In this document: positions 7,032-64,000 of the stretch, in pieces
Position numbering within the stretch: position 1 is the stretch's first letter
Layout: each line of letters opens with the position of its first letter
Assembly: GCA_000934665.2 (NCBI GenBank)
Contig: JYFJ02001449.1
Location: forward strand, 1-64,000
Direction of reading: 5' to 3'
Source of the DNA: Catajapyx aquilonaris
Taxonomy: Eukaryota
Length of the DNA stretch: 64,000 nt
The notes under the pieces: model-generated
Databases searched by the model: none
What the model was told of the DNA's origin: nothing
Seen by the model: only the letters and a program-made list of their open reading frames with translations
Position numbers and translations under genes: made by a program

Positions 7032-7168
7032 ATTATCCTGGCTGTTCAGAGCAACCTTTCAGCCACCCAAGGATGCCTATAGTATCAGGGGCTAAATGCT
7101 GGCCCCTGATATTAGGCTTCCTGTTGAGCATGAAAGGCTGAAAGGCTGCCCCGAATAGCCAGGATAAT
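7032..7168. repeat. 137-bp nested inverted repeat (fold-back/palindromic MITE-like element)
   Basis: Outer arms ttatcctggctgttcagagcaacctttcagcc / ggctgaaaggctgccccgaatagccaggataa are complementary at 28/32. Inner stem tatcaggggc / gcccctgata is a perfect 10 bp. Confidence 0.8.
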
Positions 7169-17400: not shown

Positions 17401-19678
17401 GGAATTCTCGTAAAAAAAACATGTATAAAATTCGAGCAGCTGGCACACTCTCCTTTCTTTTTTTTCCCTTTTTTTGTAGGCTCTTCATCACTACCACTGT
17501 CGCTGTCGCCACAGCCATTTTATCCACCGGAAAGGCCAGCGGTTTTGTTCTTCTCGGGTGGAAAACACTTGACTCTCTAGAGGCACAACCAGGACGGACT
17601 TGACACCGTTTTCTTGCTTGCTCTAACAACAGTTTGCGGTGATATAATGACCCCGTTTTGAGAGGACACGCCCCGTTGTGCAGTCAGTGACTCGAGCGAG
17701 AAACTCTCAGAGAAAAGGCTCGGTTACCTGCAGCACACCGCCGTTTCAGTGCCAGGAAAATATAGCCAGAGTACGAGTGAAACACACAAAAGTCACATTT
17801 GGTCGGGTTTGAGTTTATGTCCAACCAACACGTAGCATTTTTCTGCTCTACTTGGTGAAATCCATTTAATCAGAAATATTCATAATGAGCCAGAAAGCCA
17901 GAATTTTCTGTCTTTTTGTGCTTGAATTCTGGATTATCTCAAAATTATTTTATAAATCTTGATTTTTCTTGTATTCTTATGATATACTGGTACAGTACAA
18001 AGAATAAGCTGGGGTTTTTTTTAAATGTTATTTTTTAAAAAAAATCCTGGATGAGTCACAGAAACTTACTGGTACAATGGCGCTGGCGTCTGTTGGGCAT
18101 GTTTCTTGTTCCCATTTGGAAAGCTGTGTGAGAGGACGAGGTTGGCCCCAATATCCTCCTTTTCCCAGGGAGAGACTGGAAGGGGGGGGGGAACAAAACG
18201 AGGCCAGTCGGCACTAAAAGCAGCTGTCTTGCACAATATTCCCGGCCAGTGGGGGGATGACTCGGGATCCATGCAGCTCTTTACACTTGCTTTCACTTCC
18301 CCGGGACACACATTNCCCCCCCATTTCCAACTAGACTTTTGGCCAGCTTGCTCAGCGACCGAGTTGCTTGGCTGCGGCCATTTGAGTCACGTCGTCGTTG
18401 CTCAACCTGCCCGATTCGAATGAGGGAAAGTCAAATTCATAAGCCACAATAGCGTAAACTGTGGTCAGCAAACAACTCCTGTTTTTGGTAAAATGCGGAG
18501 GAAATCGGATTTTGGGAGGACATTTCATTGAATTGGTATAAGCTGCATAGATATAACGGGGTAGATCAAGCCAGTACTCTGCTGTAGCACTCACAGTACC
18601 CAGGGAAAAATATTTGAAGAAATGCGATCCCAAAGGGACAATGCAGTATTCAAATTGTATTATACATTACGACTCAAGAGTTCTGCATTTCAGATCTTCA
18701 ATTACTCAAAATACTCCAATAAGTCTGAGCCTTCACTGTACAGTGACCTCAAATTTACAAAAGCGAATAATTTTTCTACCCCCATTAGCTCTGAGGAATC
18801 CAAGCAAACACAATTTTTTTTTCTCCAATCCGCAATCTGCAGAAAGACTCAAGCTCTACGCAGCAGGCAAACAGAAAAACACTGCTGACATTGTACAGGT
18901 ACATCGATCCTCTTTTCCCCGGCCAATGCTGCACTGTATTAGCAACGGGTCAATGTCAAATCGGTTCCGTTTCGCGTGCCAGAAAAAGAGACTCCTCAAA
19001 GTCAAACACGGCTCAGTCAAAAAAAAAAGTGAAGGATCTTACGTATAAAACTTTCCACCGGGTGTTAATCCCTCTGACATGAGATGATCGCCGTGTAATC
19101 CTAGCTTCCCAGATCCGACATAAGTCTCGCAACACAAAGGGGCGACCATGCGGGTACAACTTGATGTACGGTTATGCCTGCATTTAGCGTCAAAAAGTGG
19201 GGGGGTTGGTTCCAGCTCCATAGTTTCTGAAGTACTTCTGCCTCGTGAAAAACTCTCCAGTAAATGACTTTACAACTCCCGGCAGAAAACAAAACGTTTC
19301 CCCGTTGCGCCTCCCCTCTTCTATACTTTATTTTTTTGGCGCGTATGTGTCTAGCCCGCTTTTGCAAGTGTGTTGGAGCGAAAAGACTGAAGAGTGCAGA
19401 ATTGGCCCTGTCCATACTTTAAAGCTTGGAGAGGCACAAAAAAACAAGCCTGGGACGGAAGGAAGGTTACAAGAAAAAAAAGAAGGCAAGATGTCCGCAG
19501 AGGCCTGTATGCAGCAGCTCCAAGGGCAATTTCGCATGCTATATTGCGTGTTCCATTCAGACCAAGCGAGCTTCCAAAATCCTTCCGAGGAGGCTCTCGA
19601 TCGTTTAGCCCGCATTGAGTAAGAGCTCTTTTTTAGCTCCTGAGTATGGAGGCTCTTCATCTAGTCCGAATGTCACTA

Positions 19679-19726: not shown

Positions 19727-20050
19727 TCAGGTTAATGCAAGTTGAAGTGACGACTCTGCATTCATGATTTTGTCTGTAGACTTAATGCTACTGTGTCTAA
19801 CCGGCCCATTTTGTGAGCCTCCATGCGGCATGACTCTAAGGGCAGCGCCTGCCTTCAAATATCTGTGGAGGCATCGTGTTGCGAAAGATCCTTTGCGACT
19901 CTCTCTCCTTCCACTGGCGGGTCCGAACAGGTGAGCAAAAGTGAGTGCGCTCCAGTTGTTCCCTGCCCTGTGCCACAATGCATCTAAGCGGAAGCTGAGA
20001 TGGGCCAACAATGGCCGGACTCCGACCATATCTCCAAGCGCGGTCAGGGC
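19727..20050 (-). CDS. ARMH2: Exon 2 (terminal, 107 codons + stop) of armadillo-like helical domain protein (ARMH2-like)
   Basis: Acceptor ttaactgcAG|GCC at 20051/20050 joins in frame to exon 1, giving ...IAGNSK|ALTALGDMVGVRPLLAHLSFRLDALWHRAGNNWSALTFAHLFG... This is the same frame as track ORF 19727..20029. It resembles the C-terminal part of ARMH2 as I recall it (L..HL....W....N.A....L.G). The family assignment is from memory, not from a search. Confidence 0.75.
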   Translation of the reverse strand, partial: ALTALGDMVGVRPLLAHLSFRLDALWHRAGNNWSALTFAHLFGPASGRRESRKGSFATRCLHRYLKAGAALRVMPHGGSQNGPVRHSSIKSTDKIMNAESSLQLALT

Positions 20051-20252: not shown

Positions 20253-20819
20253 CTTTGAGTTGCCAGCAATGACTAACAGTATGACGTAGGAGGCACATCT
20301 GACAGTCGTAGAGCTGCGCTTCTCTTTCTGAATGAACTGAAACATTATGTTAAATCCCCGAAGATCCACAAACTTGTCCTGGTTCTTTTCGTTCTCGTAG
20401 CACAACATGCACAAGGATTGCAACAAGCGGATCTTGTAGTTGGAGTACTTCCTGGAACCCTTGTACTGAAGGAGCTTGAATATGTGAGGCATTAGTCGAC
20501 CGCATAGTTCCACTATTCGAGGGCTGCCCAGATACCCTTTCAGGCAGAGAGTGAAGATCTGTCCAATGCTGTCCTCACTCGGACGGTGTTCGTCCCTGGT
20601 CATATCATCTACAGCTTTGACCACCTGAAGGTATGTTGGAAGTAGGTCTTTCTTGACCACCTTTTCGTCTACCTCAGCCATATCGGAAGGATCGGATGGA
20701 AAAACCTCTTCCTCCAGGTAGGTGGCTAGCATGTATATTCGGAGGAAAGTGTCAACCTGGGAACGACTATATTCTGTCTCCTCTTTTGGCTGGACCTTCG
20801 AAGTGCTCTGCTTCATCAT
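20253..20819 (-). CDS. ARMH2: Exon 1 (189 codons) of armadillo-like helical domain protein (ARMH2-like, 296 aa in total)
   Basis: Longest ORF in the window, with natural composition and amphipathic helices. There is an in-frame TGA 18 nt upstream of the ATG. Segment YKIRLLQSLCMLCYENEKNQ...CASYVILLVIAGN matches my recollection of ARMH2 (KILLLQSVACWCYLN..SQ...CYVLSVMTCNN). The exon ends at a strong donor, so the last 20 aa of the track ORF are intronic. Confidence 0.8.
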
Positions 20820-21916
20820 GTCGAGGAGGTTAAATCATGCTCTCAACTTAGGATGCTCGATGCAGTTTCTTCTTTGCACAGATCAGACTCGAGGATCTTC
20901 GGTTCAGGAACGTCTCTCTCTCTCTCTCTGGATATGCTCACATTGTTTTGGTGGATTCCAAGGTGATGTCGCACATTGTTGAGCTGTCCACTCTGCATAT
21001 ACTGCACTCACATCAGCAATAATTATTACATTACTGTTGGTTGTTTACTGAGCAAATGTTGACAATAAAAATCATGCAGGCCAACAAAAATGAAAGAGAG
21101 TTCGAAAAGCTTTGCAGACATTGATCAATCCAGCCAAACTGCTCAAACCATCGGTCAATTATTTTGAATTTATTAATTTTGAAACCTAAGTTGTTACTAG
21201 ACAATATATTTAAAACACTTTGCAGTGTCTGCACATGGCACATGTAGCCTACTATAAATCATTGAGAACGCAGGGGATATTATTTTTCATTCATGCTATA
21301 TGCTACTTGTTGAATGTTTTAATATCCCCACTCCGAGATACGAATATCTTGTAAATTAACTTTCAGGAAAAATATCAATTATTAGAAAGTCTAATAATAT
21401 TTTTACAAAATTCTGCTTCTAGCTGTTGGCAGAGATTCAGTAATAATTACAAAGGTAGGTTTATATTTGACCATTGATAATTTCATTGAACCATATTGTA
21501 ACTTGCACAATGATAAGCTTTTTTAAAATAATATTTATTTGTTACAATTTCCCGTCATAACATTAAAATACGTGAACAGGAAAATGCGGCGGAATGTTAA
21601 TTTCAGCATTAGTTTTGATTCGCTCAGCTTTAAAAATAACCATCTGCTCGTTTTACCATGGAAAATGGAAACAAATATGCTTGTAAATTTTTTTGCACAA
21701 TGTACTGTACAGTAAAGCAGTGCAGAAACTTACATACACTCCATACCAGCAGTTTTCAAACTGCGGTATTTTTCCACGTCAGTGTGTGGTGTGCGTCCTA
21801 CCACAGGTACGACATGTTTCAAAGGGTAGCATTTTCAAGGCAACGCAACAGTGGCAATCACGCGTTGACAATTTTTTGTGCAAAATACTCTGCACGCTGT
21901 CATCCGTTATGTAAAA

Positions 21917-22022
21917 TACTGATAATAACTCTTTCATTTGTCTTTTCAGGTAAGTCGACTAGATGCGATGGTGAATAGTTCCCACCTAAGAGCATGGTTC
22001 CCACTTCCAAGGGAAGGTAAGA
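21917..22022 (+). other. Recursive splice site (ratchet point) at 21949/21950 with a 67-nt cryptic RS-exon (21950-22016)
   Basis: Branch-like tactgat (21917-21923), pyrimidine tract ctctttcatttgtcttttCAG, then immediately the perfect donor GTAAGT. A second donor AAG|GTAAGA follows at 22016/22017. Confidence 0.65.
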
Positions 22023-25000
22023 GAATGGCCCTCTAAAAAGTTTATCCTGGAAGTCAGGCAAACATGCGTACGGAAGAGACGCATGGGTTGCCTTTCAGTG
22101 TCAGGATAAAACTTAACTGATGAAAATGGCTCAAGACGTAGCTGAAGGCCATCTTACTTGAAACTTGATTAGCAGCCATCAAAAGCAACTTATTTGGATC
22201 ATGTGACCCACATTGCCCTTCAAGTAAGAAGACATTTATCTGAAACATGAGTGCAGTTTCAACCAAAACCGAAGGGAACAAAAAAAAATCGTAACAAAAG
22301 GACTCCTCGGGTGTAACAGTGTTGACACAAAAGGACTTTACGATTGCGTAGAGATAGCAACTTTATATCTCATTTGGAATTTACTCTCGGCGTTGAATCA
22401 ATAAAGGCGGCAAAGTAGCTATCGTTTTTTTCCCTTTTTTGTCTCCTGATTTACGACACCCTACAGAGAAATCGTACTCTTGCAAAAAAAAAATCCCTCT
22501 TTTTTGTTATTCTTTCTTTTTTTTGTAATCAATTCGGACTTCACCCTTTCCGCAACTCTCACGCCTGAATCTCCTCCTTTTCTGAAGCCGACCCGGTGAA
22601 CCGCCAATGGAAAAGCAAAGAGGACATGTTGGGGGGTTGGAAGACCGAAGGGGTGGCGTCGAATTGGGAAGGAAAAGAAAAGAAAAGGAAAGAGTAGAAA
22701 GAGACGAAAGAAAATAAGAGCGGGCAAAAAAAGCAGATTGGCGATGCTTAGCACTTCCTCTCGTCTACTTTCCGCACCAGAAAAATTCCACAAATACTTC
22801 AAGGAGATAAGGGTGGTTAGGTTCACTTAAAGGTCAAAATCTCTTTATTAACATTTTGGAAAATCCTGCATGATCCTATTGGAAATTTTTGCCCATAAGC
22901 GGCAGGAGTTATCAGAAATATCAGCTGCTAATATTAGCTGGGGGTAGGCGCATGTTTTTAAACATTTTATTTAAAAATTGGCCTATGGGAATAGTTGTCC
23001 AATATCGAGTTACGAAGACTGGTGCGCGCAGCATGTGAAGTGTAAAGTTACATAAGTCAAAAGAGCAATATGGTGTGTACTTGGGAGGTAAAGTCAAACA
23101 GTAGTACTACCTGTGAAAACTGACATGACCCTAAAAACCGAGTTCCCGGGAACATGGCTAATTTTGGAGCAAGTATATAGGCAGATATATATTTTTTGTT
23201 CGATTAAATGTGGTCCGCCGCCAGCCATTCGCATACGCTCGTACTTGCAGTAATATTATGCTTTGCGCAAGAGCGCTGCGGGCTTAACGATCTACTTCAT
23301 GCAAGTATCAATACCTGATTCACATGCTTCAACTTTTTAAAAAACCGAGTGTGAATTATGTGCACACCTGACAAACTCAGGATATTCGCACATACTGTAC
23401 AGTACATACTGACGAGATTGGAATTTTTAGCGCATGATTTCTTTCCATGAAAATATATTAATCATCACATATTGTAAAAAAAATAACTTAATTAATTCCG
23501 TAAAAATAGCGCACTTGATAATGTATGCGATTTTTACCCTCCGCATATTTTAAAATGTGGCCTTTGACAGATCTGTTCATTGCAATTCACCCTATATTCC
23601 CACCATTGCAACTCACTTTTCGCTCTCGGCGCAAACGTGTTTATTAAACCTGGTTATTTAGCCTCATTGACGAGTCCATATGGAAGCTGTTTTACACTCT
23701 GGATGCAGCATTCGCGACTGACACTTGTTTAACTATCAAACCTGATAAAATCGCGTTGTCCTGACACATTTGCCAGTGAAAACCCCCCCGGTCCGCGGTG
23801 TACAGCATGACAAGTAATACACTACAGCACTCACCCCCTCCCCCCGTATTCAAATTAACACATTAATTTATTTACTTTGCCCCCCTCTACAATCAGGTTT
23901 TAATAAACATGTTTGACCTGCCCTGAACAAACCCGATTTCACCTCTAAGCTCACTTATTATTCTGAGCAACCCCCCGGTTTTGTAATTAGAGGAGTTTGT
24001 GACCATTCCGGAGAAGGCCGTTATTTTATAGGTTCAACCCACCACCCCTCAACCTTTCCTCTTTTTGGGTGGAGAAAATACTGTTTTCCAATCCCTATGC
24101 AGCTATTACCCTAAATGCTCGGCCCTTTTCTTCGTGCTCGGACTGCAAAATAAGAAAAAAAAATGTCTGGAGAGAGAGAAAAAAGAAGTAAAAAAAAAGC
24201 AAAGGCTGCATTGTCTTAATAGTAGCTCGCTGAAAGCTTGGGCGGAAAGTTGGAGAGAGAGAGGTTTTTTTGGAGGGGGAGGGTTGTGTCCCGGCGGAGT
24301 AACAAGAAGGGTACGTCATGCCGAGTTACCATCTTCAAGCACCGTCATGAAATTTAAATCAGAACACTTTCAAGAGAGAAGAGTGGACCGGACTCGGTTT
24401 TTGTGAAGTTTTCGTTCCTTTTCGTTAAAAAAAATTATATAAAATGTTTTGGGAGTGCTCACCTCGATGGTCATTATGTAGTCTCCACTCTATTGTTGAA
24501 CTGCTTCATGATGGCCTCTACAGTGTGTAATTGACGTATTGTCAAGCACCTGTCCGTCGGATGCGAGGAACTTTCCGTCATTATTCGACGTAATGGTGTC
24601 ACTCGGTTTTGGCGGACATGGGTGAGTAAGCATTGCTGTTTTAATGCTCAAGTTGCTCTGTACGTACAGGATGTTTGATAATGATGCAAACATCGAGGGT
24701 GAACTTATGAGCGCCAATTATATATTGAAGAGGTGTCATTTAGTCTTAGAAGCCTCGTTACCAATTAGCAGCAACTAATGTGCACATTACGGATACAGCC
24801 TACGACATTTATATCGGATCGGAGACCACCTGATTCATCTAGTAAAATCTGAAATTTATCGTAATAATAAAAACGTTAACCTGCAGCTCAACCCTATGAG
24901 TCATTTTGTGGCTTTGTGGCCAGATTTTTTAGTTTAAAAACATTTCAAGGGCTGTCTCGTAACACCAAGTCATTTTTGAGTAATAGTTTTCGCTTAATTT

Positions 25001-28750: not shown

Positions 28751-28922
28751 TCGAGGAACTGCTACGCACGCTGCTACTTTAAGCCCTGCTCAAGGAACTG
28801 CTACGCACTCTGCTACTTTAAGCCCTGCTCAAGGAACTGCTACGCACTCTGCTACTTTAAGCCCTGCTCAAGGAACTGCTACACACTCTGCTACTTTAAG
28901 CCCTGCTCAAGGAATTGCGACG
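28751..28922. repeat. 39-bp minisatellite, about 4.4 copies
   Basis: Unit tcaaggaactgctacgcactctgctactttaagccctgc starts at 28751, 28790, 28829 and 28868, with a partial copy at 28907. Full units differ from the consensus by 0-2 substitutions. Confidence 0.95.
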
Positions 28923-50709: not shown

Positions 50710-50817
50710 ATATCGCTCAAAAACATAAAGACGATTTTGCATTTGATTCAAGTGCAGGCTGCACTGGAGTCAAAAAAATGCAAAATCGTTTCTACAATAT
50801 ATATTTTTGAGCGATAT
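50710..50817. repeat. 108-bp nested inverted repeat (fold-back element)
   Basis: Three nested stems: atatcgctcaaaaa/tttttgagcgatat (14/14), acgattttgcattt/aaatgcaaaatcgt (14/14) and gattcaagtgcag/ctgcactggagtc (11/13), with a 1-nt centre. Confidence 0.85.
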
Positions 50818-52482
50818 TCGCTGAGGGAAAATGAACATACGAAATTATACGAGGTGTAGTCCGGAATTGCCCATATGTGCCTGAGCAAACACCTTTAGAT
50901 GAGGAGCAAATCCTTAGGTATTTTGTACAGTATAACAGGGAATATACCTGTTTGAAATATTGACAAACAAATAAATAAGCAAACATTAATTAAATTAAGT
51001 AAATGTTTCCCGATTCTCCATAGCTTACTACCCCCTTTCTGGAGATGTCGCGATAGTGTTGTTGTGTTGTTGTATTATTTACTTCTATGCTTATGCTGTG
51101 CACATACCCCATGTTGTATTAACATGAAAGCTTATGGGTCAAAAATATTTTCTCGGGCATATTCAAATCAATTGCTTATATTGAGAGCTGTTTTTGTGGA
51201 TGAGAAATGCCCATAATTATCTGCATGCTGTCGGTTTGTAGGTAATTATTTAGGTGTCACATTTTGAATACCATATATTTATTTGTGTTTATTATGTGAC
51301 TCTGGTGTTAGGATACTGCAGATTAGGGGGGGGGGGGACAGGATTAGTTCAAAAAGCTGGTTCAAAACGGAGCCACACACCCCAACACAGCCAGAGGCAG
51401 GTTTAACTTGTGTCACTGGACCTAAACCAACCGTAAGGTTTACTCATCTGAGGTATATGACCCCGAGGTCAATTGAGTGCAAAGGTTGACATAAGGGAAG
51501 GGCAACTGTCCAGGGAGACTCCTCCTGTCCAGAACACTGACGAACGTCCATTTAACTCGATTTTGTGTCCCTCCAACCCAGCCGAATTGGTAGTGTAGCT
51601 TCATAGAAGTGGGTGGTGGGGTGGCAACTGGAATTAGTGCCCTTCCTGACGCGAATGCCTGATTGGCTTCTCCTGGCTCCGGAGCAGAGACCGGAGATGA
51701 AGAGAAGCATAGCCCGGATAATGCAGCCCCTTAATTCGAGCCAAAGAGAGAGAAGTGGAGGGGGGCTAAACGTCCCTCCCCCCCCCCTCGCCACTCCCTA
51801 ATCTTCCTGGAGGCTTTGTCGCCGTCACCAGAATTTGATGCTAATGAAAAGGAAGACTAGGTGAGATAACGGACGAATGATTAAGGAGCATAGAGAGAGT
51901 CAAGGTGCAAAAAACAAAGAGAGAGGACACTGCTGAAAGAGAAGAGGATCCAACCGGTGTAACTATACACTGAGAGCAGACTGGCGATTAATGGCGACTG
52001 CAGTGGGTGCCACTTGTTCAGGGTTGACAAATGAAGACACGGAGATTAAAACTGCTCATTTCCTAAGGGAGTCTTATGACGGGAAACAAACCTTGAACTG
52101 CGCTCCAGCAAAAAAGTGCGTGATGGAGTACGGGAAAAAGTTACAACCATGACAGATTACAAACGGTTTAATGGGTCAAACTGTACCACTGCACACACCT
52201 GGCCAATAGTACACACCTGCAGGCCATGTCAGATACTCGTTCCCAGAAATGAGTTGGTCCGCGCAATTTTGCAACTGTTTGCATGATAAAATAACACGGT
52301 GACGAAAAAACAATGTGCCATTATTCACAAAATAGTACTATTGAGTCCGGCAGCGAAAACAAGTCGTCAGCATTCATCAATATCAGGCACAAATTAATAA
52401 TGGAAGAGCAACCCTATACACGCTGGTCATCGGTTTTCTCACATGGAGTTTGTCATATTTCCGATCATTAATATGTGCTCAA

Positions 52483-52530
52483 TACAGGGTGTTTCAGAAC
52501 TTCGTTGGCGTCATTTATGACTCATCCTGT
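52483..52530. mobile_element. Very short, internally deleted CAGGGTG-type MITE relic
   Basis: tacagggtgtttca ... tgactcatcctgt, degenerate inverted ends spanning 48 bp. Confidence 0.3.
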
Positions 52531-55500
52531 TTGTTAGCCTTCCGGTCCGCACAATAACAAAACGTACACTATCCGGGTTTGAACAACCTTGTTTATTGTG
52601 TTCGGTAAGCAACAAGGCATTGTTGCAAGCCGGGGCTCATTTTCATGTCCATTTTGGCAGACGAGAAGAGGAAGAGGAAACGTGGGGGGTGAGAGAGAGG
52701 GGGGCTGGCAGGGCTCGGTTGGAATGAGGCTCGATGCCAGTGGCAGAGAATGTTTGTGGTTCGCCATGGAAATGAGGTGAATTTTCAATCGACGGTTCAT
52801 GCATTTGCATTCAGATTATTCCAGCCCCAACTCCTACGGTGCCTGGTTCGATCCGCTTTTAGACCAGCATTACTTTCCTAAGAAAAAAAATACACCTAGA
52901 CCCGACAAGAGCCAGAGATATTAAGCTATATCATCTGGAGGGAAAACGTCTTGCTCCGATAATTAGTTTACGTGAGGAAAAGCCTCGGGATTGCCGCTAA
53001 TTAGACCTTTCCAAACCACGTGGTTCCTTTTGGCTCCAACCTAAAAAAATAACAACTGGCGACAGTATGAGTTTCATCTCACGTGACCTCCCCAGCTTCT
53101 GAGGATGGGGACCTTTCTTGAGCTCCTTTCTTAGAGAACTTGGAGCTAATGCGCCGTTAAAACAAACGAGAGGTTGGGGAGAGAACTGGGGGTGGGTCTT
53201 TAAGCTTTTCAGAGTTATGGCGACGGAAGAAAGTCGCATGCATAGGATTAAGGCTTTTCTCTCTCCATCCAGGAGCAGCAGCAAGCCTACTTATTCCTAG
53301 AGAGAAGGTGGTGGACCCAACGTGCCGACTTGGCTCTCTCTCATCAGATTGCGCGCTATTTTCCAGGGGAAATTAGGCGGCGGACAAGAACGCTGGGAAA
53401 TGGCACCCTCCCCATTGTTCCTGGCGCCAAAACTGGGGCGAGTACTTTGGGAAAATTTGCCTTTGCTCCTAAGCCGCGAAGAAAATGGGTGCGTTTTGGG
53501 CCTAAAAATTTTGGACTGCACTTGGAGGCATTACTATAGCTTACAATGTCTGAATTATTGCGCAGTCTTTGCGGGGCTGCTGGAGAGAATTGGCTGGTAA
53601 TCTGAATCTGGGAGGGCGAAATACTACAGGGAGGTTTATATGTAACGATGGAATTAGGCTGATATTATCATTATGTAATGAGCTGCGCGATTAGCAATTC
53701 TCTGGTGGGGATAATTTTCCTGAAAATAATCGTGGGACTTCTCTGCACTCCCACATATAATAAAATATGTACGGCAATGACGTGCCAATTATTTAATTTT
53801 AATGACTTTACAGTATTATACTTATGATAAATTCAGACTGCTGCACTGGCTCTGAATACCGATCCACCCTAATTGATTAAATTTTACTGGAGATGATACT
53901 AATTTCTATTGAAGTCATTAATTTGTATTATATTGCAATGATGCAATCCTTATCCATGAAGCAGGCTAAATTTTCCAAAAGTATTATATTGCATCAGTCA
54001 ATATGTATAAAAGAGTTCTTAAGCCATGATGTATTTACGTACATACCAATACTCACTTTTCTGACACTACATTCTTCCTTAGAACCGAACATCTGATAAT
54101 ATTTATGGAAATTTACCCTACGTTCACCTGCACAACACCAAGTTGGCCACATTATTAATTAACCAAATATACTCATTATGAACATGTCACACAAGCTGCA
54201 GCCCTTAACTGTGTTTTACACCACAAAGCCCGTTTCACCTTTCCCACACTTCACACTGTACATCATCATTGCAATAATTGTTACAATATATGCCTCGTAC
54301 AGTATTATCTAGGCTAACCAACGTTTTTCATAATTATGCAAAGTAAAGTCAAACGGTCCGTTTCATTGCCCTAGTTTCAGTTTCACGTTTCCAAACACAC
54401 CCACATACGCAAAAAAAAAGTAGGAAACGCGGCCCTGGGCATAGTCGCTCGTATTATTTTCATCCTACTTTCTCCTCATGCTGTGCAGCATCGGTCGAGG
54501 AGCTGTTCAGCGATGTATACGTACTGCGTACTGCGCATCACCTCGGGGAGAAACGGTGAACACTAAAAGGCCGTGCAGTGCATGTTTGCCCCTGCGGTTT
54601 ATGCCACAATGCGAGCAAGTGCACGTATCAGGTAGCCTCTCTCTCGGATCCGATCAAAAAAACCAGTACAGTGCATGACCTCCTTTTTTGCCGCACCTGT
54701 TGCAATCTGCCCACCTTTTTTGTCTATACTACATGTGGGCAACGTGCCAATAACGCATTTTTTATCGCTCTGATTACAGGAGTAAACACGGGCCTCCACT
54801 GCAATGATAGCGCCCGAAGGCAACTTTAGTGCCGACCCTAGATCAATTCCCGGTGAAGGTTACGAAACCTGGTCATAAACAGAGCCCTCGTTAATGGCTC
54901 CCATCTCCAGCTATGGGTCAACCGTGCCCCCAAAATGTCATAAGCAAGTTTTGATATTATCACAAACAGACAAATCGCAACCGGAGCGTGATTTCCAGAC
55001 GTTGAAACTGGTAGGCTCCAAGTTTCAATGGCTTTCCTTATCAAACCGGTCTTAAGTGCGCCACGTTTATGGGGCTGGTGCTGGCTGGGCCAAGACGTGG
55101 CTTTCCCCTCCTAAATGCCGCAAAGTATCACTCTTGCTTTTCGCTAATTAGAGAGAAGGGAGGGCTTGTGCCAGCCCTGCCCTTGTTGACCTCGCAGGAG
55201 CATCTGCATCGGCAAAATTCCTCTGTGCATATCCCTCTGGGGGATGGTTCCCAAACAAGGACCAGCAGCCAAAAGTTGTGTGAATGGAGCAGCAGCCAAC
55301 CAGTACTGATAACGCTTAATTAAAATTAGGCACGAGTGTTGGCTCTAATAGGTAGACAGTACTATCCATGAGAACATGCTCATGATTCTTTGCATAATTT
55401 TTTAAAATGTTTTGGCCCCTGTGCTATATTGATAAACACCTCTGACTTGAATCCTCCATGAACACCCTGTATCCTCAGCCTTTGCCGCCAACTTCCTGAT

Positions 55501-58500
55501 TACACAAGTATGCAGGAAGGCATAAAAGATTAATCAGGCAGCATGCAGAACACTAGGTAAAGGGAGGTTTGGGTCGATAATTTTGGCGGAAGCAGGCCCG
55601 ATTCAATATTTAACAAATTTTTAACGCCGCATCCTCATCCGGACATTTTTGTTAGTTTTTTTTCTCTCTGCAAAGCGTGGTGGATAACGCATCATTACCC
55701 CGATGTTAACACGGGCTGAAGCAAAAGCCTCTTTTTGGTTCGTGTTGAAAACAAAACAGAAGCATCATTCTGCGGGGACATTACCCAACATAAAAAACTG
55801 GTCCCTACAGGTCTTCTCTCGTCGGGATTTACGAGCTGGCCACAGTCACGTCGAATTTCAAACAAAAATCCCCCACCTTTAAACTCAAAAGGTGTTATTT
55901 TTCACCAAACTGTTTTCCTTCCTCAGGCTTCCAAAACCTCATTTTGCCCATCTAATCATTCACTACTGCAGTTTTCTGTTTTCTAGGGCAACATCAGGCT
56001 CGGCAGCATGGAGGTGAAAAAGGTTACCCTATTATCCGCAAGTAAGAGGCCCACAAAAGACATTAGACTGCCATTATAGAAAGGCAGGGGGGGAGGTGTG
56101 TGTGTGTGTACCTTAAACCCCCCCCCCNTGTTTCGTTGCGAGTGCACCGTTCTGCAAAACACTAATTTGCATCCCAACGTCTCCCGGTTGCAGCATCGCT
56201 CCGCCTCTAATGCGAATTTGATTACCAAGCCTTTCCGCAATACATTTCCCCTTGACCGGTTTTTAAACACTCTACTTCGACATTCTCATTTTCCTTTTTG
56301 CGGGCGAATCCGGATTGGAAAAGCGGCGAAACGGCTGGGGGGGAAAAAAAATAAATGAGCACCTGTGTCCTCGACAATTTGCAAATTTGCGAAAGATTCC
56401 TTTCGAAATACCTTGCAACACGTTGGGTGTAACGCAAACCAGAAATCAATGAGGTACCTCGCATTCTTGCGTCAATCACAATCCAGAAACTCAGGCTATG
56501 GCGTGCTCTCAAAAGGTTGCGGTTTCCGTCAACATGGGACTTTTCGGCCCACCCTTAAAACCACTACCCTCCGACCTCCTTTAACACACAAAGTTGCCCT
56601 CTATCTCTCAGATTTTCGGGTGCGCTGAAAACACGATGCTTCACAACACACTCCGAGATCTAATAATCCCGGATTTAATAATTAACAAGGTCAAAAGGAT
56701 TTGCGGTGTGCAACAATATAATCGGGCGAACTTGGTCCGTTTGGCAAAACCTTAGTCAAGTCAACCATCTCGCAATGCAATCCGGACTAATTTGGCTGCC
56801 CGATTCTCTGAGGAGATGCGATTATTAAATAGTTCCTCCAGCTAAACGAGATTACAAGATACTCTCCCGGGTTGCATCAGTACTTGATGCGATTACCGGA
56901 ATCTCCGCTTCTCAGTCCACCGGATTTTTTTTTGCTTGTTTTCTGCTGCTTTCTGGCTTGGAGCAAGAGGTCAGTAAAGCACGGTTAGGCCCCTGCACCT
57001 TCTCGGCCAAACGTGGCGCTCTAATCCGATCAACACGATCCAGAGTGGGTGAAACACCAATCTAAACGACAGATTAGTTCTATGTCATTACAATGGACAA
57101 CAATCAGCACTCTGGCAAGGCTAAAATCTCAGGAAAATAAACCATTCGCCTTGCTGGAGTAATAGTGGTTACAATCATGTCAGGATATGTTTATCCAATA
57201 TTTTTATTGACATTAAGTACCAGCAGACCGAAATGTTTCAGCAGTGCTCTGAGGTGTGCCACAGGATCTAAAGACATGGAAGGTAATACTCTGCGGCAGC
57301 CTAGATTGCAGCAGAGCAAACCCTTTTTTTTTCCTCCTCGGGAAGTTCCTGCCTGCTTTTCCCCAGCCAAGCAGCAGGTGTACTTTCCGATGCAATGGGA
57401 CCACAGGCGGTGCGAAGCTACCAAAACACCCTCAAGTGTTTGTCTAAAGCATGATATTACAGTGCACTATACCCTGTGTATTGCAGGAAAGCGCAAAGGA
57501 AATCTTGAAATTTCACCTCCCCTCTTTTGATCCCGCAAACGTCCACAAGAAAATGCAAAACCTGGCATTGCAACAGAAGGCAAAAACCCAGTTTCCATTC
57601 CGGTTTTATCCCTAGTTCAACCACTATTATTCAAAGCAAGATTATTTGCGTGTGGGTACTGAAAAAGCAGAGTTTCGGACAATCATGGAGCCAGTCCGAA
57701 CCAAAGGTCCTGGTTTTTACTGCCAAATTTCGGTTAGGACAACCTGAAGGATCCAGAGTCAAATGGACTTCCCCACACACCACCACTAGGTTTATTTGGG
57801 AAAAGGCAATTTCCCATCTGGTAGAACACGGCCCAGTTTGTGTCCCGGAGTAATAGGTTCTTCGGACTGCCCTCCCGCGCGTTATTATGGGCAATCACAC
57901 ACTACAAAATGACTGCCGGAAGGCCTGGCTGGCTGAGGGGGGGAGGAAAACAAGGATGGAAAAAGGGGTGGTGGGGGACAGGACGATTGGACATGTCACG
58001 TAGGGAAAAGCCTGAGCGACGATGTCCGGCGTAGGATGATTTTCACAAGCTCCCTTTATGCCGGTTTCGGGCAGGCTACACTGCTCTATTATGATACCAT
58101 AACCCACAAAAGCTCTCCCAAGTTGGGATTTTGGAAACTGCCAACACCCTGTCCTCATCACCTCGCTCCTGGGGACCATTACAACCCTGCACGTGCGTGG
58201 TGTTCATAAAACACAGGGTGTTTCATAGCGACACTTTCTATATAGAGAGTATATAGTGCCATATCTTTCACATAGATGGCGCACCCTCCCTCTCTGTACA
58301 CTACTGATGACTCACCGCAGGTGGAGCACTCTGTACTTTTGAACTAACTTCTTTCGGCACAAACTGTGTCCGGCTACAAAAAAACACTGGTCGCTAAAAA
58401 GTCAAATGTCCCGTCCGGCGCGGCGGAGAGAAAAAATATGTGTCGTTGGAAATGGTCGGGGTGGAGAGAGGGCAGGCGTCGAAAATGCCCTTTTCATCCG

Positions 58501-58549
58501 TGTAAAACCCGATGCTCCGGCGGCAGTTAGGACAAATGAGAGGACCGGG

Positions 58550-58580
58550 CCGTAAATCTGGTCACTGACCCATAAATCAT
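58550..58580. promoter_or_regulatory. Composite enhancer-like element: nuclear-receptor IR1 flanked by two Hox/Exd-type sites
   Basis: ccgtaaatc (58550-58558), tGGTCAcTGACCc (58559-58571), ccataaatcat (58570-58580; reverse complement ATGATTTATGG). Confidence 0.4.
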
Positions 58581-59849
58581 GGATCGAAATCTGTGCGCTG
58601 ATTTCACCTTACCAGTACTACTACAAACGGACCCAAATTGCCCCGTGTGTTTTGGTAGCTCATTGTGCACGTGTGAAACTCCGGAGTATGTTGTGCGAAG
58701 GCATAAATTGCATTGTTGGTCAGTTATAATTTTACTATTTTGAATGCGGTCAAAAAAATAGTGTCTGCTGGACCCAATTGGCTGAACGTATCTCTCTTCT
58801 GAAGTTGAACTTCCCCAAACTGGAACTAATTAATCCTCTCTCTCCTACTCTCTCTCTCCATCCGTCCTTCTATTCCGGAGGACTGATGAATGGAGTGGAA
58901 TGAGGGAAGATGGGACCGGTGGTACGCATGGATGGCACAGGAAGGCATTGTCGACAAAGGGGACGGGATGCGGAGAAACGAGCACCTGAACTGAACTCAT
59001 CCGACTGTGCACACGATTAACATGCTCTTCCACAACTTCTCTTGAAATTTTTTTAAAACATTTTTTTGGGGCACTGCCAAACCATGCTTATATCCATGAG
59101 CAATGGATCGAACCTTTCAGTCGCAAACAGTACAATAATTGTTCCAACTCTCCAAAATACAATTTCCTTCCATCTGTACCACCACCACCATCCAGTTTTG
59201 TTTTGACAGGGTGACTTTCGGAAGAGGATTCAAAACAGGGCCAACCCAGTTTTTGAGCTTGGAAAGGAACGGCTCATAGATTTTAATGGGTAAAGTTGGC
59301 CTGGCAGAAGCGGAAAGAGTTGTACGGCTGTGTCGAGTGGTCTGGCGTAACGGCCAGATAGAGATTTGGCCTCACTTCTATAAGTAATGGGAGGCAACTT
59401 AAAACTTCGTTTTTTTAACAAACATATTCTAAAGCTTCTAGGGTGGGGATCAATCAATTCGTAATATTTTGCGCAAATCGATAAACTATGGATGCACTAA
59501 AGTTTTTATCGCTCCGATCTCCCTTGGGACTTGAATAATGAATAAAATATTGTCTGCGGAAAGTATTCTTCGGGATAACTTACACAATTTATGGACCATA
59601 CGGTTTAGTTACAAGAAAAACCTTTTGCGAGCTCGTGTAACTCCTGATTGGGATTCGGGCCCGAATCGGCTAAAACAAGGCGTAAAAAAACGGCATCCGT
59701 GATTATCCAGAAACTGCAACAATTAAATATTGGTGACATCGGGCTGTTTTCCGTTTTACTTTAATGCAATTTCTAAATCCAGGTTCGTTTTCCCACAAAA
59801 ATGCAATGGGATAAAGTAGGATCACATTTCTATTGAGTTCTGACTTTTC

Positions 59850-59884
59850 AGACATTTGGTGACATTAAATGTCACCAAATGTCT
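59850..59884. repeat. Perfect 35-bp palindrome (17-bp arms, 1-nt spacer)
   Basis: agacatttggtgacatt-a-aatgtcaccaaatgtct. Confidence 0.95.
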
Positions 59885-62800
59885 TTATAAATTTTATAAA
59901 AATATAAATTCTGAAAATTTGCAATGATGAAATTAGTGAGAAGCAATAAGTTCAGGCCAAAGACTTCGTCAAAAATATCATAAAAGGTTACATATTTTAA
60001 TTGAAAATCGAGCCACCATTTGATGGAAGAAAGTCGTGCCTCACAGGTGAATGGTGTGATTGCTAATTTCTGGGCTTAATGAAATCATTATTCGTGCTGG
60101 CAGGATGTGCACAAAGGGTAATGCATCAACAATGGTTTTTACGTCCAGATTTCGGATTTAACCGTTCCCAGGGCGGCCAACTTAATCGCCACATATTTCT
60201 GCATGACGAATGATTAGCAATTTAGATATGTAATTGGCACTTTTTATCGTCGCAATAAAAGTAGGGTTGGGGGGCATCAAAAACGATATATTTTTGGCAC
60301 GATATTTCTAATCCACTTGACAGTAGTTGGCGGTTCCCCAATCCTGATTTGCAAATGAAAATTTATGTGGCGATAGTAATATGTGGGAACCAGAAAGGCG
60401 AACTGTTGACGTGAGGATGGGTGAGGGTGGGAGGTAGGGGACAGAGGGTGGAATCCCCGCAATTAAAAGCCCCCAATAACTATTTTAATGCTCCAAGCCC
60501 TATAGAGTTCTGTCGAAATGGTTTATTGCAAAACGCTGGACGGATTGTGTCTCCGCTCTTTTCTATATATCCTTTGCACCACTAATTACAAGTTGATATA
60601 TGAGCGCCGCCGGATGTTTTATTACGGTTCGCTCATATTGCTTCCGAAAATACTGCGGATTGAAGCTTTTTGGGAACATCTGCCGGCCTCGCCCACCCTA
60701 AAAAATGGTAGCAGTCCCAGAAAAGAAAACTGGGAACAATTTCACACGTGAAATTAAAAACCGGTTGCGACGCGGATCAAAAGAGATGACAAAGGGTTTT
60801 ACTTGTCTCCCACAGCTATTCCCCTGCCGTCTGCGAAAAATTTTTTTATAGTATGGCAGGGAAGGGAGAGGGAAGGGGGTGGTCGGCTTTCGTAATTTTG
60901 CGATGAAACATTACCCGCTCCATTACTCCTACCTTCCTCCCCACCTCCTGCTGAAACCAAGATTGATCTGAGGACAGTGGCGCTGATGAATGGATACGCC
61001 TCGCTTAGCCTAGCCCCCCATAGGAATAACACCCTTCCCTTCCCTCCTCTACTCTCTCGCCTCCAGATGAATTGCAAGCCATTTGAAATATAGACCCTCT
61101 CTTGCGGGGAGAGAGAGGCTCAGGGAAATCGAGGGAGAAAGAAAGCCTTCCAAACAGTACCTGGGAGAGTCTCCCGTGTAATTGACGGCGCTCCAGGATA
61201 AAAGATTTGCTGTACCTAAGCGTACTCTCCGATCAAGTCCGGACTATCGGAGAGTTAAGCTCTATTCGTGTATCTGGAGGTGCAAACACACCCGGGTTTA
61301 GCCATTGAGGATCTGAAATCGGATCCTTGTTAGCCATTGCCGTCATACCGAGTAGTACTATCAATTTGGCAGCAAATTGCTCAGACCATGATTTTGGAGT
61401 AATTAGACCAAAATATGTAGTCACCTCTTTCTCACTACTAGGATTTGACTTTTTGCACAACACTGGTTCCAATTAATAGGCAAGTGACAAAAACACATAA
61501 CCTATCAAAATGTTAATGTCGGAGGCGGTGCGTGTTAACGATTAGCATTAATAGTAGCACAACTGAGCTTTAATTACGTGTAATTGCATTCATTACTAGA
61601 GAGTTTACATAATTCGCTTTATTACGCATTCTAAATTGATTTCGATCTGTGTACTGTACACTATTATTTAATCATCCTGCAGTGCAGTGACTGACTGACA
61701 TGCGCCGACATTATTACAAGTAGCTGCCAATTACTTAATTTGGCGATAACCATTCCGCGCCCGTTCCACATGCCATCCATCCACACCCACCAATTTTTGG
61801 GAGGGGGTGTCCCTTGCACCATCTCAAGTGGCGTCCCCTCTTCAATTACTGTAATTGGAGAGAGGCGAGGTGGGAAATTACAAAGTTGAGCTTCCCTCGA
61901 AACCGACTCGTCATTATGTAGCATCCGGTCGTAAGCGGACACCCAATCAATGATGCAGAGCACCCTGTGGTTTACGTCCTCTATATACCACCCCAACTCC
62001 TCTCACCTCACCTCCTCCAAAAACCAATTCCCCAATATCTCTCTCTGCTTGGGCCCGGGCAGGGCGGAACTTAAGTGGTAACGGAAGCCCCTGGTCCTGG
62101 TTTCGTTTTGCCAGCAAGTTGTAACTGCTCCGGAGGCCCCCGATGTGTAACTGCACCTTTTCTCTCCAACCTGTGGTCTTCGGGTTGGAAAATTAACAAT
62201 CGATAAAGTCGTTACTGGGCCGGTCCATATTCTTGAATATTCGGAGAGGTCTAGGAGGGCCACCAATCAATACGAAATCGATCCTAAAGATGCACCAATT
62301 CACATTTTGTGATTCCAGGCATGTGAGTTGACACACCCTGTATACCGAGTCCATCTGTAATGCGGATGGAAGCCGCGCAAACCGTGGGGGCGATGAAATT
62401 ATCAGATGATTCCCGTCTCTAATCCGAGGCTTTCACAATAGGCTGCTGCACTGCACCATTTCCTCGTTGGGAGGGATATACATCACCACCTGCTGCAGCC
62501 AGCAGAGTGGGTGGAAAACCAATGCCTTGTTATTTCACGTCTCACCAACTCCGTAATAAACCAAGGGGGTATTAATTTTATGCAAATGAACACGCATAAT
62601 CTGGAAGGATGAACGGTGGCTCGGATCATCTGCTGTCCCCTAATGGGTAAACACCGACCCTGCATTTATCGCCATTGTCCTTCAGCCTAATAAAAAACAA
62701 AGAACTTGCAAGGTCCTTGAAAGTTACCTGAGTGCCTCGCATTCCGGCAGCTCTCATTTGTCTCTAGGGCGACGTTTCGCGAGCATTATCGATGAAATAT

Positions 62801-63440
62801 CGCTGATGCTTCACCGGATGATCGTACATTTTACTTAGGGCCTCGGCAATCGTTGCCTTTTATGCAGACACGCACACTTTTTTTTTCCTCCCGTATACGA
62901 GCCAGTCGAGTAGATTTTCACCAAAGGCTCATTACTGGTAGAGAGGAGGTACCTAGTGACGGCTCAGAGACACGGGCCAATTATTCAAAGTGGCTTCCCA
63001 AAGTGGAATACCGGTTAATCACATGCTAATATGACTATCCTCTCGAAACGAGCTCTGCACGAAATGCTTCATAATGATGTCACCGGTGATTTTTTTTCTC
63101 TCTCTCTCACTTCCAGGTTTTCTGCCACACCTTGTATCAGCGAAATATAGCAGGTAGTAATAAAGTTCGAGCCCGCTTTCCTGCGAAGCCGCTTTCACCA
63201 TATACCCGGGTGTAATATCCGGGTGGGAGGGGACCAGTGATGAATCCGGTGTCCCTAGATGAAACGGTTCCCAGGTGTTAGGCGGCGACGGATGTCGTTA
63301 ACACCACAGGCAACTCACTCTCGACACAAGTGCTCTTTACTTCTGATCCCTAAAAACTCGTGTCATATATATTTTTTTCTAGCTCCGAATCCCCTCCCAC
63401 AACTATAGATATTGTATAGCAGAAGCCAGACCGAAACCCA

Positions 63441-63470
63441 TTTTTCTTTTTCTTTTCCTCTCAGGTAATG
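63441..63470 (+). other. Candidate recursive splice site at 63464/63465
   Basis: Uninterrupted pyrimidine tract tttttctttttcttttcctctCAG directly followed by GTAATG. Possible downstream donors at 63513 (weak) and 63569 (AAG|GTGCGA). Confidence 0.45.
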
Positions 63471-64000
63471 TAGAGCGTCGATTCAACCCTGGCCGCCCAG
63501 GGGGCATTTTAGGTGTTCGAAGAACAATTTCCGAAACCATTGAATTTTTTCCCCCTCTACTTTCCAAGGTGCGATTTCTACACCTGCGTCTGCCCAATTT
63601 CACTCGGGGTTATAGATATGGTCCATCTTGCAATAGTGAGCAGAATTTTTTAAAAACAATGACGATGAAGGCCCTAGGGCTGTGATTAAATAAAGCGTCC
63701 AGCGTGTTATGAAATTTTAACGCGGTTTATGGACCACGGTTTTGCTAGTTTGTTGAACGCTGTGACAACATGATGATGATGTATGTACCAAATGACTGCC
63801 ATTTGCTTAATAAATTGGCTCCGTAATTGAGTAATCTGATTAAAGCAAAGCTAACTGGTTCCAAGCATGACTAAGGACCCAACATAGGCCATATTGATTG
63901 ACTGATTGATCTATTCCCACATGTTTTGATCCACATTGTGGCATACTTTCTCGCAATGATGAAACTTACAATGTTAAATCATGTGTCAGTGTAAGCCATA

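Follow-up and report, generated by a model that had tools for sequence, protein, structure and literature searches.

The closest described relatives of the site reported here are the Drosophila ratchet points with cryptic RS-exons, of the Ubx, kuz and Bx type (Hatton 1998, Burnette 2005, Duff 2015, Joseph 2018, 2021). In the fly work as described in PMC8605326, ratchet points are tandem acceptor-donor pairs lying in long introns, each of which encompasses a short cryptic RS-exon of about 50 nt, variable in length, with a downstream donor of its own, and the ratchet donor outcompetes this RS-exon donor. In the accounts of the fly system drawn on here, the body of the RS-exon is generally out of frame and poorly conserved between species, and the acceptor-donor core is strongly conserved in related species. 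The host introns are given as 11,341-132,736 bp and the removed segments as 2,596-63,580 bp, with TT occupying -5/-6 in 196 of the 197 fly sites and branch points peaking near -30 (10.1101/006163). Furthermore, recursive acceptors are characterised in PMC6110457 as stronger than ordinary ones.

RS-exons are also reported from the long neuronal genes of vertebrates (Sibley 2015), and annotated RS-exons are described as being repressed by the exon junction complex (Blazquez 2018, PMC6224609). Among other animals, the evidence includes motif counts: on the complement of long introns, the density of ratchet-like motifs is about 0.07-0.12 per 100 kb in all animals examined (PMC2773006, Table 2), and on the sense strand it reaches 0.48-2.2 per 100 kb, a 4- to 22-fold enrichment, in sea urchin, bee, beetle, mosquito and fly, with at most 1.5-fold in vertebrates (PMC2773006). 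In the locust, a predicted recursive site in the 230-kb intron of NPF1 has been studied, U2AF65 immunoprecipitation included (PMC8892266). The original prediction for the present locus had called recursive splicing little documented outside model species. This is partly fair but overstated, given the enrichment reported in 2009 for sea urchin, mosquito, bee and beetle (PMC2773006) and the locust study (PMC8892266).

The DNA analysed here is a single stretch of 64 kb (the window), in which positions 21919-22022 of the + strand are tentatively read as a recursive splice site consisting of a ratchet point and a cryptic 67-nt RS-exon. The features concerned, together with the nearest gene, are the following.

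21919-21923, + strand: CTGAT, read in the sequence and resembling a branch point, a role that is putative.
21924-21949, + strand: 3' splice site tract, pyrimidine-rich, AG-free and ending in TTTTCAG.
21950-21955, + strand: GTAAGT, the candidate ratchet-point donor, directly 3' of the acceptor AG.
22014-22022, + strand: AAG|GTAAGA with its GT at 22017, a second donor matching the consensus at 7/9 positions, which would give exon definition.
21950-22016, + strand: candidate RS-exon of 67 nt (3n+1).
20254-20819, minus strand: first coding exon of an ARMH2-like gene, matching PF17822 and not part of the splice unit.

The candidate branch-point A is at 21922, 27 nt ahead of the last base of the putative intron. 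Pyrimidines make up 74% of 21924-21947, AG is absent throughout, and TT at 21944-21945 occupies positions -6/-5 of the acceptor. The acceptor CAG has its last base at 21949 and is abutted by GTAAGT with zero spacing, forming a TTTTCAG|GTAAGT core (21943-21955). As the genomic DNA reads, CAG|GTAAGT at 21949/21950 matches the donor consensus at 9/9 positions, and it is the sole AG|GTRAGT in the window with both strands counted. The comparison of 9/9 at 21950 with 7/9 at 22017 applies to the DNA as it stands, positions -3 to -1 of the first donor being the bases of the upstream exon after ligation. The 67-nt unit has four stops in frame 2 and one in frame 3, and frame 1 is open over 22 codons, a point implicit in the original prediction but left unstressed there; its 22-residue peptide has no Pfam match at E<=1. 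The CTGAT, the AG-free tract, the CAG and the abutting GTAAGT that had been named in the original prediction were each found base for base, and its second donor 67 nt further on, as well as an exon that is not a multiple of 3 and has stops in two of three frames, proved correct. The architecture that it had claimed, that of ratchet points and RS-exons, is also borne out in that all the sequence features named for such sites in PMC8605326 and 10.1101/006163 are present; as its DNA stands, the locus lacks nothing in sequence that characterises ratchet points of the Drosophila type with their cryptic RS-exons.

Like the Drosophila ratchet points, the 21950 site has a perfect (Y)nNCAG|GTAAGT core, TT at -6/-5, a candidate branch-point A about 27 nt upstream and a short out-of-frame unit closed by a second donor that is the weaker one in the genomic DNA. 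Unlike them, it has a unit of 67 nt instead of the typical 50 nt or so, its nearest gene is antisense, and its host gene and long intron are hypothetical. With vertebrate RS-exons, as they are portrayed in the sources cited above, it would share the proposed sequence of exon definition followed by re-splicing at a donor regenerated at the first base of the exon, and inclusion of the 67-nt unit would likewise shift the frame. It differs from them in its genomic setting, since the CpG observed/expected ratio of the window is 0.80, which argues against a vertebrate genome. Given this ratio and the ARMH2-like gene, the non-model invertebrate supposed in the original prediction is plausible. The site also resembles the predicted RP-sites of non-drosophilid invertebrates (Shepard et al. 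2009, PMC2773006; the locust NPF1 intron, PMC8892266) in being a motif match within a presumed long non-coding stretch, whereas those predictions were made in annotated introns >50 kb and the intron here is hypothetical.

In the recursive-splicing reading, the acceptor (branch-point A at 21922, U-rich AG-free tract and TTTTCAG) and the donor at 22017 would jointly cause the 67 nt to be recognised as an exon, and some upstream + strand exon would be ligated to base 21950. At the resulting junction the donor consensus would arise anew as xxG|GTAAGT, and this regenerated donor, presumably stronger than AAG|GTAAGA at 22017, would win the competition between the two. A second step would then remove the 67 nt together with the remaining intron, and the mRNA would keep no trace of the unit. 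With 9/9 for the ratchet donor and 7/9 for the exon donor, skipping of the exon is therefore predicted by the donor-competition rule as set out for the fly in PMC8605326. The anatomy of the motif and its rarity under chance can be seen in the DNA itself; transcription of the + strand, the host intron and every one of these splicing steps are inferred. Use of the acceptor in a + strand transcript is somewhat more likely than not. If it is used, xxG|GTAAGT should in most cases prevail over the weaker donor at 22017, and recursive splicing as a whole is placed a little below an even chance.

How much weight the motif can bear depends on how much of it is considered. The bare 9-mer YAGGTAAGT is ordinary: it was seen once and expected 0.75 times, and at least one copy was present in 54 of 100 shuffles. 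The motif YYYYNCAGGTRAGT, also seen once, was expected 0.06 times and was present in 6 of 100 shuffles. A strict acceptor context, for which a 20-nt stretch had to be at least 75% pyrimidine and free of AG, with TT at -6/-5, was found at 23 of the 3,260 YAG sites on the two strands of the window, 21949 among them, and GTRAGT immediately follows G with a frequency of 3.2e-4. Assuming independence, 0.0075 strict acceptors joined to GTRAGT are expected per window. In Markov simulations of orders 1, 3 and 5 (1,500 windows per order, 4,500 in total) there were 5, 8 and 24 such sites, respectively, and all estimates for a strong acceptor with GTRAGT lie between 0.003 and 0.016 per window.

The full composite was taken as the strict acceptor-donor plus an AG|GTRAG located 25-150 nt downstream. 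In the 64 kb, AG|GTRAG occurs six times on the + strand and five times on the minus strand, two of the + strand six being the 21950/22017 pair, and the chance of finding one at 25-150 nt downstream is about 0.01. This brings the composite to 6.5e-5 to 8e-5 expected per window on the assumption of independence, and it occurred in 0 of the 4,500 simulated windows. Only one of the 23 strong acceptors, again that at 21949, has an AG|GTRAG donor within 300 nt. These figures are optimistic in that the motif thresholds were chosen after the site was seen, and if the second donor is relaxed to GTRAGW, the factor of 0.01 for its presence downstream increases to 0.08. For these two reasons, a realistic expectation for the composite is about 1e-4 to 1e-3 per window, which is rare, yet possible across very many windows. 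The composite is unlikely to be pure chance.

A host gene was sought on the + strand by comparing its stop-to-stop frames with Pfam, and none of the 467 (126 of at least 70 aa and 341 of 40-69 aa) scored above cut-off in a scan that short or family-less exons would escape. On the minus strand nothing besides ARMH2 was found among 120 frames of at least 70 aa and 259 of the 321 of 40-69 aa (all but the 62 in 51472-63965). Below-cut-off matches to CadC_C1, zf-Paramyx-P, PspC-TM and Phage_zn_bind_3 were treated as chance. Strand asymmetry does not mark the + strand as the transcribed one (AATAAA 46 versus 51, T-A skew near 0), G-C skew and donor-like hexamers were likewise uninformative on this point, and scans for an intronic RNA gene that might mark the host strand gave no Rfam match at the gathering threshold and no tRNA. 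G+C varies from 38 to 49% in 2-kb steps. The window is almost free of internal repeats, and self-comparison and a repeat search revealed no second copy of 21000-23500 within it, copies elsewhere in the genome still being possible; since the region is thus single-copy in the window, a within-window repeat is no explanation for the site. Orthologous DNA was also sought in metagenome contigs, where none of the 43 pattern matches from a protein-guided scan could be confirmed and an exact 34-nt scan gave no matches.

One exon-like unit was found on the + strand about 2 kb upstream of the site, running from TTTTGTCTGTAG| at about 19779 to CAG|GTGAGC at 19931. It lies opposite what is presumed to be intron 1 of the ARMH2-like gene, its frame is open to the donor, and no Pfam family match was found for it. 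It is at best a possible upstream exon for 21950. If the frame 19746-19931 were joined to 21950 it would meet TAA at 21951, which would suit a unit needing removal. The host intron, on the recursive-splicing reading, would enclose the antisense ARMH2-like gene and would probably exceed the window. The single recognisable coding exon in the 64 kb would fit a very long intron and, equally, intergenic DNA. That a working site lies inside a >64 kb intron of a + strand gene nesting the antisense ARMH2-like gene, in a non-vertebrate-looking animal that may lie outside the insects, is possible but doubtful.

The ARMH2-like gene is, as far as its sequence tells, the only recognisable gene in the 64 kb. 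The minus-strand frame 20190-20834 matches the Pfam family ARMH2 (PF17822) with an E of 1.4e-7 and 31.7 bits against a cut-off of 25, the match covering profile positions 66-169 of 229, and it also gives a below-cut-off match to Atx10homo_assoc. An in-frame TGA precedes ATGATG at 20819, the ATG being 20819-20817, and the exon closes at an AAG|GTAAGA donor near 20254, so that transcription runs leftwards. The start codon is 1.1 kb from the splice site and the gene points away from it, which places the site in its upstream region. No single-sequence relatives of the exon were found at near lengths (117 candidates) or at greater lengths (577 candidates), and phmmer found no hit among 1.84 billion representatives. 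Because these three large protein searches were negative for single-sequence relatives, the protein would be either a very divergent member or one of a family poorly sampled in this lineage. In the ESM Atlas it falls among armadillo/TPR-like helical clusters, with the ARMH2 cluster at rank 5 and a score of 0.93.

Several minor features lie around this gene on the same strand. A (GA)n run at 20912-20930, about 100 nt upstream of the start codon, is possibly promoter-associated. About 2.1 kb downstream of the exon is an exon-like unit at 18070-18176, which has a C/T-rich acceptor ending in CCAG and, after 106 nt, CCA|GTAAGT, and is in frame with the ARMH2-like exon. It gained no support as coding sequence, its basic 35-residue translation having no Pfam family at E<=1, and candidate exons at about 24.1-24.5 kb were likewise unsupported as coding.

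Three other explanations of the splice-like anatomy have to be weighed against recursive splicing. Quite possibly, if at well short of an even chance, the elements are a chance juxtaposition in DNA that is unspliced on the + strand, whether intergenic or on the promoter side of the antisense ARMH2-like gene, and the motifs are inert. The ordinary frequency of the bare 9-mer agrees with this, as does the background of ratchet-like motifs that all animals examined have on non-sense strands (PMC2773006, Table 2). The closest gene lies on the other strand, Pfam revealed no + strand exon among frames of at least 40 aa in the 64 kb, and a genome-scale scan that picks the best site would meet about one composite per Gb at 7e-5 per 64-kb window. 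Against this stand the rarity of the composite under every null tried and the coincidence of independent details, namely TT at -6/-5, the AG exclusion zone, the branch distance and the relative donor strengths. In PMC2773006, motif rates exceed those of the complement on the sense strand of long invertebrate introns, and a perfect-consensus site with an exon-defining donor would have to be placed there to be more likely real than accidental. Should the acceptor be functional, the 67 nt might instead be an ordinary exon retained in the mature RNA of a + strand transcript (5'UTR, lncRNA or frame-1 coding) that starts with GTAAGT by coincidence, which would make the unit an 'expressed RS-exon' at most. 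We regard this as unlikely. A strong acceptor with a consensus donor 67 nt beyond it is an exon by definition, frame 1 is open, another exon-like unit (19779-19931) lies on the same strand 2 kb upstream, and hundreds of annotated mammalian exons are described as starting with donor-like sequence (PMC6224609). However, GTRAGT right after G has the low frequency in the window given above, and the strong ligated donor should outcompete the weaker one at 22017 by the rule described in PMC8605326. The frame-1 peptide, moreover, lacks a Pfam match, about seven of ten random sequences of 67 nt would be expected to have one open frame, and the open frame of the upstream unit would run into the TAA at 21951.

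It is very improbable that 21950 and 22017 are tandem donors ending the first exon of a transcript divergent from the ARMH2-like promoter, with the tract and AG being coincidental. The site does lie upstream of the opposite-strand gene, with about 1.1 kb between it and the ATG, and two of the six AG|GTRAG sites on the + strand cluster at 21950/22017. A geometry of this kind, upstream of a gene and on the opposite strand, is seen at bidirectional promoters. This explanation nevertheless requires a coincidental acceptor context of the kind found at just 23 of 3,260 YAG sites, and neither a promoter nor a start site was identified, the AT-rich DNA at 21.0-21.7 kb having no recognisable feature.

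If recursive splicing does operate at 21950, the locus would be a concrete, testable example of Drosophila-type ratchet splicing in a lineage for which motif enrichment is all that has been reported, and would add one more lineage for studying the stepwise removal of very long introns. Weakening of GTAAGT should then force inclusion of the frame-shifting 67-nt exon. A lone candidate site changes little by itself, since flies and vertebrates already offer well-described cases of recursive splicing, and enrichment of the motif in other invertebrates was reported in 2009.

Elsewhere in the window, the sequence is complete except for isolated single N bases at 18315, 44041 and 56128. A 39-nt tandem repeat at 28754-28922 (4.3 copies, 96% matches) reads as a repeated 13-residue peptide in a 138-aa + strand open frame that has no Pfam match. 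Self-BLAST also marked imperfect palindromic stretches at 7032-7168 and 50710-50817, which are 69% and 72% self-complementary, respectively. A near-perfect palindrome of 35 nt is present at 59850-59884, where two 16-nt arms flank a central AAA and self-complementarity reaches 97%.
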